Origin: Escherichia coli O127:H6 str. E2348/69
GTDB taxonomy: Bacteria; Pseudomonadota; Gammaproteobacteria; Enterobacterales; Enterobacteriaceae
Assembly: GCF_000026545.1 (NCBI RefSeq)
Contig: NC_011601.1
Reading direction: 5' to 3' (one strand)
Length of the DNA stretch: 64,000 nucleotides
This document shows, piece after piece, positions 32,401 through 35,400 of the stretch. Made by a program: the position numbers. Every line of letters begins with the position of its first letter. Positions within the stretch are counted from its first letter, which is position 1.

Positions 32401-35400
32401 ACGCCGACATTCTGGTGATCACCACTGGCGTCGAAAAAGTGTGTATTCACTTTGGCAAACCGCAGCAGCAGGCGCTGGATCGCGTAGATATTGCCACCAT
32501 GACCCGCTATATGCAGGAAGGGCATTTCCCACCTGGCAGCATGTTGCCAAAAATCATCGCCAGCCTGACGTTCCTGGAACAGGGCGGCAAAGAAGTGATT
32601 ATCACCACGCCGGAATGCCTGCCTGCGGCGCTACGCGGCGAAACGGGCACCCATATTATTAAAACCTAAGGACGTAAGATGAAAGAAAACAATAGCCGCC
32701 GTGAATTTCTGAGCCAGAGCGGTAAGATGGTCACCGCCGCCGCGCTGTTTGGTCCCTCAGTGCCGCTCGCCCATGCGGGGGTAGCTGGCACCCTAAACTG
32801 CGAAGCGAACAACACCATGAAAATCACTGACCCGTATTACTATCTCGATAACGTGCTGCTGGAAACCGGTTTTGACTACGAAAATGGCGTGGCGGTACAG
32901 ACCCGCACGGCGCGCCAGACCGTGGAGATTCAGGACGGTAAAATTGTTGCCCTGCGCGAGAACAAGCAGCATCCGGACGCCACGCTGCCGCACTATGACG
33001 CTGGCGGTAAGCTGATGCTGCCCACCACCCGCGACATGCATATTCATCTCGACAAAACCTTCTACGGCGGGCCGTGGCGCTCGCTCAATCGTCCGGCAGG
33101 CACCACTATCCAGGACATGATCAAACTCGAGCAGAAAATGCTGCCGGAACTGCAACCGTACACGCAGGAACGGGCGGAAAAACTGATCGATTTATTGCAG
33201 TCGAAAGGCACCACCATTGCCCGCAGCCACTGCAATATCGAACCGGTTTCCGGCCTGAAAAATCTGCAAAATTTGCAGGCGGTGCTGGCGCGACGTCAGG
33301 CGGGCTTCGAGTGTGAAATCGTCGCCTTCCCGCAGCACGGTTTGCTGCTGTCGAAATCGGAACCCTTAATGCGCGAAGCGATGCAGGCGGGGGCGCATTA
33401 TGTCGGCGGGCTGGACCCGACCAGTGTCGATGGCGCGATGGAAAAATCCCTCGACACCATGTTCCAGATTGCGCTGGACTATGACAAAGGCGTCGATATT
33501 CACCTGCACGAAACCACGCCGGCAGGCGTGGCAGCCATCAATTATATGGTTGAAACAGTGGAGAAAACGCCGCAGCTAAAAGGCAAGCTGACCATCAGTC
33601 ACGCCTTTGCGCTGGCAACGCTCAACGAACAACAGGTAGATGAACTGGCGCACCGGATGGTGGCGCAGCAAATTTCTATCGCCTCGACGGTGCCGATTGG
33701 CACGCTGCATATGCCGCTCAAACAGTTGCACGACAAAGGCGTAAAAGTGATGACCGGCACCGACAGCGTTATCGACCACTGGTCGCCTTACGGCCTGGGC
33801 GACATGCTGGAAAAAGCCAATCTGTACGCGCAGCTCTATATTCGTCCTAACGAACAGAACCTCTCCCGCTCTCTGTTTTTAGCCACTGGCGATGTATTGC
33901 CGCTCAACGAAAAAGGCGAGCGCGTGTGGCCCAAAGCGCAGGATGATGCCAGCTTTGTGCTGGTGGACGCCTCCTGTTCCGCCGAGGCGGTGGCGCGTAT
34001 TTCGCCGAGAACGGCGACGTTCCATAAAGGGCAACTGGTGTGGGGAAGTGTGGCAGGTTGATATGCATTTAATATGTCTGCAACGGTGAACAGTAAGAGA
34101 TTTAAGCCCCAGGGAGTGGGGCGGCCTGAGTATGAGTGTGTTGGCAGAAATGGACATTATCTTTGAAGAATATGCCCTTATTGACGTTGTGTAGATAACT
34201 ATTTGTCTACGTGAAAATATCATCAGTTTTGCCGATTTTTGTCTTTTACGGATAGCAAATATCACACTTATAGGCGCTCGCCTTATGGGGAACGTTGCTG
34301 CTCTGTTTCATTCAGGCTCGCGGCATGTTGGGGCTGGATCGGGTGGTTTAAATATTGGCTATATTCAATGGACGCGTTTTGCCGCGATGACATATCAGGC
34401 ATCGCCAAATACACATAGCTAATCAGGAGTAAACACAATGAAGATCAAAGCGTGCATATTCCGCTAAACAACCGCTTGAACCGATGGATATCACCCGGCG
34501 TGAACCGGGACCGCATGATGTCAAAATCGAAATCGCTTACTGTGGCGTCTGCCATTCCGATCTCCACCAGGTCCGTTCGGAGTGGGCGGGGACGGTTTAC
34601 CCCTGCGTGCCGGGTCATGAAATTGTGGGGCGCGTGGTAGCCGTTGGTGATCAGGTAGAAAAACATGCGCCGGGCGATCTGGTCGGTGTCGGCTGCATTG
34701 TCGACAGTTGTAAACATTGCGAAGAGTGTGAAGACGGGCTGGAAAACTACTGTGATTACATGACCGGCACCTATAACTCGCCGACACCGGATGAACCGGG
34801 CCATACTCTGGGCGGCTACTCACAACAGATCGTCGTTCATGAGCGATATGTTCTGCGTATTCGTCACCCGCAAGAGCAGTTGGCGGCGGTGGCTCCTTTA
34901 TTGTGTGCAGGAATCACCACGTACTCGCCGCTACGCCACTGGCAGGCCGGGCCGGGTAAAAAAGTGGGCGTGGTCGGCATCGGCGGTCTGGGACATATGG
35001 GGATTAAACTGGCCCACGCGATGGGGGCGCATGTGGTGGCATTTACCACTTCTGAGTCAAAACGCGAAGCGGCAAAAGCCCTGGGGGCCGATGAAGTTGT
35101 TAACTCACGCAATGCCGATGAGATGGTGGCTCATGTGAAGAGTTTCGATTTCATTTTGAATACAGTAGCTGCGCCACATAATCTCGACGATTTTACCACC
35201 TTGCTGAAGCGCGATGGCACCATAACGCTGGTTGGTGCGCCTGCGACACCGCATAAATCGCCGGAAGTTTTCAACCTGATCATGAAACGCCGCGCGATAG
35301 CTGGTTCTATGATTGGCGGCATTCCAGAAACTCAGGAGATGCTCGATTTTTGCGCCGAACATGGCATCGTGGCTGATATAGAGATGATTCGGGCCGATCG

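Follow-up and report, generated by a model that had tools for sequence, protein, structure and literature searches.

A 5-bp deletion in the first codons of yahK in enteropathogenic Escherichia coli E2348/69 and the probable loss of a working aldehyde reductase

The window analyzed in this study is a stretch of 64,000 nucleotides from Escherichia coli O127:H6 str. E2348/69 (contig NC_011601.1), in which yahK occupies the same position between yahJ and yahN as in K-12. The ortholog of this gene in K-12 (b0325; PDB 1UUF) encodes an NADPH-dependent aldehyde reductase that belongs to the cinnamyl-alcohol-dehydrogenase subgroup of the zinc medium-chain dehydrogenases/reductases. By sequence and position, the window gene matches the gene annotated as yahK in >5,000 genomes, and it shares the Pfam domains and the zinc ligands of the K-12 enzyme; unlike in K-12, however, the bases TGTTG are gone from codons 5-7 and the enzyme body is readable from Met18 only. 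RefSeq treats the gene as intact and lists the open reading frame (ORF) that starts at position 34484 as a 332-aa 'NADPH-dependent aldehyde reductase YahK' (WP_000355698.1). The features of the region are listed in Table 1.

Table 1. Features at the 5′ end of yahK in E. coli E2348/69 (positions are those of the window).
Feature	Position	Strand	Basis
Native yahK Shine-Dalgarno (SD) sequence, AGGAG	34425..34429	+	Sequence; anti-SD pairing of -6.9 kcal/mol; identical in K-12
Remnant 9-codon ORF: MKIK unchanged, codon 5 Ala (GCG for ancestral GCT), frameshifted CIFR, TAA	34438..34467	+	Sequence; K-12 alignment
Deletion junction, TGTTG missing (ancestral GCT GTT GGT)	34451..34452	+	Alignments with K-12 and 2015C-4136CT1
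Codons for ancestral A8-P17 in the +1 frame, start-less; translated as YahK only with a ribosomal frame shift	34454..34483	+	Frame reading
Remaining yahK frame, ancestral codons 18-349 and stop	34484..35482	+	ORF; RefSeq WP_000355698.1; identity to intact alleles

The native start codon, ATG 34438, is preceded at a distance of 8 nt by the SD sequence AGGAG, and the codons that it opens (atg aag atc aaa gcg tgc ata ttc cgc taa) encode MKIKACIFR and end at TAA 34465-34467. An initial annotation of this DNA had placed the start, the AGGAG motif, and the 9-codon frame here and had let the long ORF continue in another frame; all of these coordinates match the window sequence, and the 332-aa ORF lies in the +1 frame relative to ATG 34438. 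Read upstream of ATG 34484, the +1 frame gives R-S-K-R-A-Y-S-A-K-Q-P-L-E-P and is bounded by TGA 34439-34441. A search for ATG, GTG, or TTG codons in this frame between the TGA and ATG 34484 found none, and GTG 34452 and TTG 34476 are both in the wrong frame for the yahK ORF. ATG 34484 is thus the earliest possible start of the ORF, as no ATG, GTG, or TTG lies upstream of it in the same frame.

The pairwise alignment of the window with K-12 MG1655 contains one gap, which is exactly 5 nt long (K-12, AAAGC-TGTTG-GTGCAT; window, AAAGC-GTGCAT), and the same 5-nt gap was obtained in the alignment with the nearest intact relative, strain 2015C-4136CT1. The ancestral codons, as found in K-12 and all close relatives, are GCT GTT GGT GCA, and the lost bases are TGTTG in codons 5-7. 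The placement of the gap is unique, and no microhomology was seen flanking the deletion junction. The N-terminus of K-12 YahK reads MKIKAVGAYSAKQPLEPMDIT, in agreement with the initial annotation, and the solved structure 1UUF has the sequence of the K-12 protein. A 5-nt loss had also been proposed there, with alignment to K-12 and other strains as the way to check it; this alignment was run, and it bears the proposal out: the reference yahK genes carry the extra 5 nt, the Val6-Gly7 codons are disrupted, and the frame is shifted after codon 5. The identity of the lost bases needs correction, however: they had been given as GTTGG (from gcg-gttgg-tgca), whereas K-12 reads GCT at the first of these codons, one synonymous base off, and the bases lost are TGTTG. 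As a result of the 5-bp deletion, the uninterrupted 349-aa frame that should run from the native yahK start meets a stop after 9 codons. The deletion is restricted to E2348/69-derived records (n = 3) in the set of 5,426 complete genomes, and the 5 bases are kept in ~5,090 other complete E. coli genomes; correspondingly, the interval measures 181 nt in the window and 186 nt in every other matching complete genome listed.

With 100% identity, the window stretch matches E. coli O127:H6 E2348/69 and two derivatives, and the deletion agrees in three complete records (CP059840.2; LT827011, 'variety 2'; and LT903847, an engineered derivative), all of which trace to E2348/69, so that they are not independent strains and alone could not exclude a strain-private change. 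Further carriers were retrieved from a large assembly collection by the exact 332-aa product (42 index blocks, 16 contigs recorded), and nine carrier places were compared with long flanks of 13-21 kb. The junction string, ATGAAGATCAAAGCGTGCATATTCC, is identical from ATG to ATG in 9/9 of these further contigs, which come from other samples and include the drafts GCA_902505455.1, GCA_001265415.1, and GCA_049977505.1, three Logan read-set assemblies, and two metagenome assemblies. Three of the nine are identical or near-identical to the window over their 13-21 kb flanks, and the other six represent haplotypes at 3, 4, 4, 5, 10, and 30 SNPs (GCA_049977505.1, ERR3587294, ERR14002501, GCA_902505455.1, GCA_001265415.1, and metagenome ERZ28626451). 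Complete genomes of other strains include no close relative; the next best match has 98.9% identity over 12 kb. A mutation private to the laboratory strain, or one acquired on passage, is ruled out by the identical junction on the six SNP-distinct haplotypes. The yahK deletion is an allele passed on vertically within a natural sub-lineage that includes E2348/69, and the frame is disrupted by a genuine, non-artefactual mutation, as in a frameshift pseudogene. The 5-bp deletion also provides a clean marker for the E2348/69 sub-lineage.

We then compared the remaining gene with intact alleles. Between ATG 34484 and the stop, all 999 nt agree (100.0% DNA identity) with the intact 349-aa alleles of six other complete genomes (RM14723, 2015C-4136CT1, 382634_2f, 377323_2f, EC12, and Z1323HEC0355), and the window ORF corresponds to the ancestral protein without its first 17 residues. 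The intact allele of these close phylogroup relatives (WP_000692733.1 in 2015C-4136CT1) has the same SD sequence, start codon, and upstream region as the window but keeps the 5 bp and the 349-aa frame. Eight differences from K-12 fall within residues 18-349 (N28H, Y78H, H109Y, A209S, A232V, L235V, M264I, and Q323R), and these are ordinary allele variation common to the intact genes of related strains. No trace of secondary decay or relaxed selection was found in the 34484-35482 ORF when its 999 nt were compared with the intact alleles, so that the 5-bp deletion is the sole lesion in yahK and, given this identity, a recent one. As exact protein identity was the criterion by which carriers were found, and any decay is hidden by it, the carrier set is uninformative on selection on the remnant. 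Because no additional decay has accumulated, the functional status of the gene is unreadable from sequence alone.

Anti-SD pairing at the native ATG 34438 is -6.9 kcal/mol, within the top 5% of the 1,108 plus-strand ATGs in the window. At ATG 34484 the corresponding value is +0.4 kcal/mol, and 87% of these ATGs have pairing of equal or greater strength; this ATG is also located inside a predicted local hairpin fold (-16.1 kcal/mol over 70 nt). Scans of the region 34000-35700 for promoter and terminator consensus sequences gave no matches and are therefore uninformative. The only plausible route to expression of the 34484 ORF would be termination-reinitiation, from which we infer at most a low level of expression. 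The message may also be subject to polarity effects caused by the premature stop.

The rival reading that fares best is built on this route: ribosomes that terminate at the TAA would reinitiate at ATG 34484 and produce a 332-aa YahK without residues 1-17, which would fold and reduce aldehydes. The distance from TAA 34465-34467 to ATG 34484 is 16 nt, within the ~20 nt that is characteristic of termination-reinitiation coupling. In native E. coli gene pairs, a +14 nt gap cuts reinitiation by 40-80% and a +38 nt gap nearly abolishes it, and between +11 and +20 nt the outcome is strongly gene-dependent (PMC10666635). A distance of 16 nt is therefore within the range of gene-specific and sometimes efficient reinitiation, and reinitiation over ~15 nt does occur in some E. 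coli gene pairs. The gene pairs in that study had normal start contexts (PMC10666635), whereas ATG 34484 lacks SD pairing and lies, by prediction, in a hairpin, and an out-of-frame TTG, at 34476, is nearer to the stop than ATG 34484 is. The window does share with the known cases of termination-reinitiation coupling in E. coli (PMC10666635; PMC2268962) a short upstream ORF that ends 16 nt before an ATG; unlike the known coupled pairs, however, the arrangement here arose by accident through a deletion, lacks an SD sequence, and is not a conserved gene pair.

The product that would start at Met18 was examined at the protein level. The 332-aa ORF retains Pfam ADH_N (GroES-like, PF08240, from ancestral residue 26) and ADH_zinc_N (PF00107), both above cut-offs. 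All metal ligands are kept, as checked on the translation against the YahK positions given in PMC11397123: the catalytic ligands C40/H62/C158 and the structural ligands C93/C96/C99/C107. The surviving domains probably explain why the annotation pipeline accepted the short CDS, and both domains and ligands count in favor of a working truncated enzyme, as does the RefSeq entry, which implicitly assumes a working 332-aa protein. What is removed, however, is a conserved part of the fold. In an AlphaFold2 model of the ancestral protein (48 diverse homologs; pLDDT 96.9, pTM 0.94), residues 2-8 form strand beta1 and residues 16-21 form strand beta2, both with a pLDDT of ~98; a product that starts at Met18, the only available start, would lack the former and the beginning of the latter. 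Across the 48 homologs (38-68% identity), positions 6, 8, and 15 are hydrophobic in 94-100%, positions 5 and 7 are mostly small (Ala/Gly in 39/48 and 42/48, respectively), and P17 is the majority residue. We also surveyed where family members begin, using the best 150 family representatives out of 1.84 billion proteins, 97 of which extend to the C-terminus. The N-terminal start is at YahK position 5 or earlier in 82/97 and at position 7 in one more, and not a single representative starts within positions 8-29; the remaining 14/97 start at scattered positions from 30 to 110, which cuts the zinc-site core, and look like fragments. In addition, the chain runs N-terminal of the M18 equivalent in 60/60 solved homologs listed. 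Beta1 and the lost part of beta2 are thus present in every complete-looking family member, and their loss would likely destabilize the catalytic domain.

Taken together, we consider with good confidence that the window allele of yahK, which arose by a genuine, vertically inherited 5-bp deletion, is most likely null or strongly hypomorphic. The loss of TGTTG in codons 5-7 shifts the yahK frame, whereby ribosomes recruited to the strong native ribosome-binding site (RBS) would make the 9-residue MKIKACIFR and terminate at the TAA, and the catalytic body (codons 18-349) is stranded in the +1 frame behind an SD-less ATG that is predicted to be base-paired. A small fraction of the terminating ribosomes, at most, could reinitiate 16 nt downstream, and in any product the GroES-like catalytic domain would lack beta-strand 1 together with the start of beta-strand 2. 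We infer that protein and activity are lost and that the loss is tolerated through dispensability of the enzyme and its redundancy with other aldehyde reductases. Pseudogene status had been one option of the initial annotation, and it is the best-supported one, at least in the sense of a null or hypomorphic allele that is young and free of secondary decay. Another option, translation from ATG 34484 without 17 residues, is exactly how RefSeq annotates the gene, but it is the weaker one, given the missing RBS and the lost conserved beta-strand.

A functional truncated enzyme is accordingly unlikely, although it deserves more weight than the other rivals. The undamaged ORF fits a recent event and is at the same time compatible with continued function; it is, however, equally expected from a young deletion, and the flanks within the lineage differ by few SNPs per 20 kb. 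Still less probable, and in our view a distant prospect, is that the lineage makes working YahK without its first beta-strand wholly by reinitiation from an accidental two-cistron arrangement, in which a 9-codon leader precedes an SD-less ATG. If true, this would be a natural case in which reinitiation rescues a frameshift, and the N-terminal strand of the YahK dehydrogenase fold would prove dispensable.

We give almost no credence to programmed +1 frameshifting within codons 5-9, which would yield a near-full-length YahK (e.g., MKIK-R-AYSAK...): the downstream frame is indeed +1 to the native start and a rare codon, AUA, is found at 34456-34458, but there is no prfB-like slippery site or SD-like stimulator at 34450-34467, before the stop, P-site UGC and CGC are unable to re-pair in +1, and the mutation is new, with no conserved recoding signal. 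Programmed recoding is not credible because all other E. coli carry yahK in one frame. A sequencing or assembly artefact, in which the real chromosome would read GCTGTTGGTGCA with the 5 nt present, has a negligible chance: small indels are common among assembly errors, and among complete genomes the deletion is found in one named strain only, but the junction is the same in the three complete assemblies and in nine further contigs, of which six belong to haplotypes that SNPs set apart from E2348/69, and a 5-nt loss in non-repetitive sequence is atypical of homopolymer error. The sequencing error that the initial annotation had also allowed for is contradicted by the same recurrence of the junction in the three E2348/69-derived assemblies and the six other haplotypes.

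A null or strongly hypomorphic yahK would be in keeping with the dispensability of the gene. yahK is absent from ~330/5,426 complete genomes. Genomes that encode the identical YahJ protein and have no yahK (L019, L021, and L023, positions ~4681-7383) carry instead an ASCH-domain gene, followed by a cluster encoding a periplasmic-binding protein and a sugar ABC transporter. Because YahJ-identical genomes carry other genes in place of yahK, the yahJ-yahN interval is a variable spot. Isobutyraldehyde and glyceraldehyde are aldehydes that YahK prefers. In K-12, the yahK deletion mutant of the Keio collection is viable, and YjgB activity was detected in an extract of the mutant (PMC3684718).

The yahK lesion is ordinary gene loss and nothing new in kind. 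It resembles the lineage-specific frameshift pseudogenes of pathogenic E. coli and Shigella, in which a small 5′ indel in a dispensable metabolic gene is inherited clonally and is left unflagged as a shortened CDS through the choice of an internal start. Measured against those pseudogenes, nothing about yahK is unusual, except that no further decay has accumulated yet. No report of the lesion was found in the literature covered, which did not include the original genome paper: none of these papers names E2348/69 together with yahK, and a wider search on pseudogenes of E2348/69 gave nothing relevant. E2348/69 is the prototype laboratory strain of enteropathogenic E. coli. Although RefSeq shows an intact 332-aa protein, yahK in this strain is probably non-functional; work on aldehyde detoxification, metabolic modelling, and pan-genome presence/absence calls may be affected. 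The case also illustrates how the choice of an internal start by annotation pipelines masks 5′-proximal frameshifts.

Other changes were observed in the neighborhood of yahK. At 35704-35705, the ~835 bp within which yahL lies in K-12 are missing (junction GAGAG|CCACC), likewise in 2015C-4136CT1, and the loss of yahL is older than the yahK deletion because the gene is also absent from that strain. At 36104-36347, yahM is frameshifted relative to K-12, diverging after about residue 31 and then reaching stops; RefSeq lists it as a pseudogene, and it is frameshifted in 2015C-4136CT1 too. With yahL absent and yahM frameshifted, the yah neighborhood is already eroded in the E2348/69 lineage. In a sub-branch consisting of GCA_001265415.1 and metagenome ERZ28626451, a GGA->TGA change in fdrA (position 5243 of L011/L013, equivalent to window position 29726) shortens the protein from 515 to 434 aa, another instance of gene erosion within this yah cluster.

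Several further features were noted elsewhere in the window. A 93-bp unit is repeated 2.9 times with 90% identity at 31403-31669 (GCCGGATGCGGCGTGAACGCCTTATCCGGCCTAC...) and is REP/BIME-like. Between yahG and yahI, the repeats fall inside a CDS (31415-31687) that is annotated as a 90-aa 'hypothetical protein' and is probably spurious because it contains them. In prpB, a CAG->TAG change at 40265 shortens PrpB from 296 to 293 aa; as 6/6 other yahK-deletion haplotypes have C at this position, the nonsense SNP appears to be private to E2348/69 and its derivatives, and an SNP in prpR, at 37657, has the same distribution. Finally, the SNPs that separate metagenome ERZ28626451 (L013) from the window are clustered in two short patches, with 5 in 117 bp (window 28552-28668) and 11 in 273 bp (38543-38815), a pattern that points to small tracts of recombination and not to clock-like divergence.
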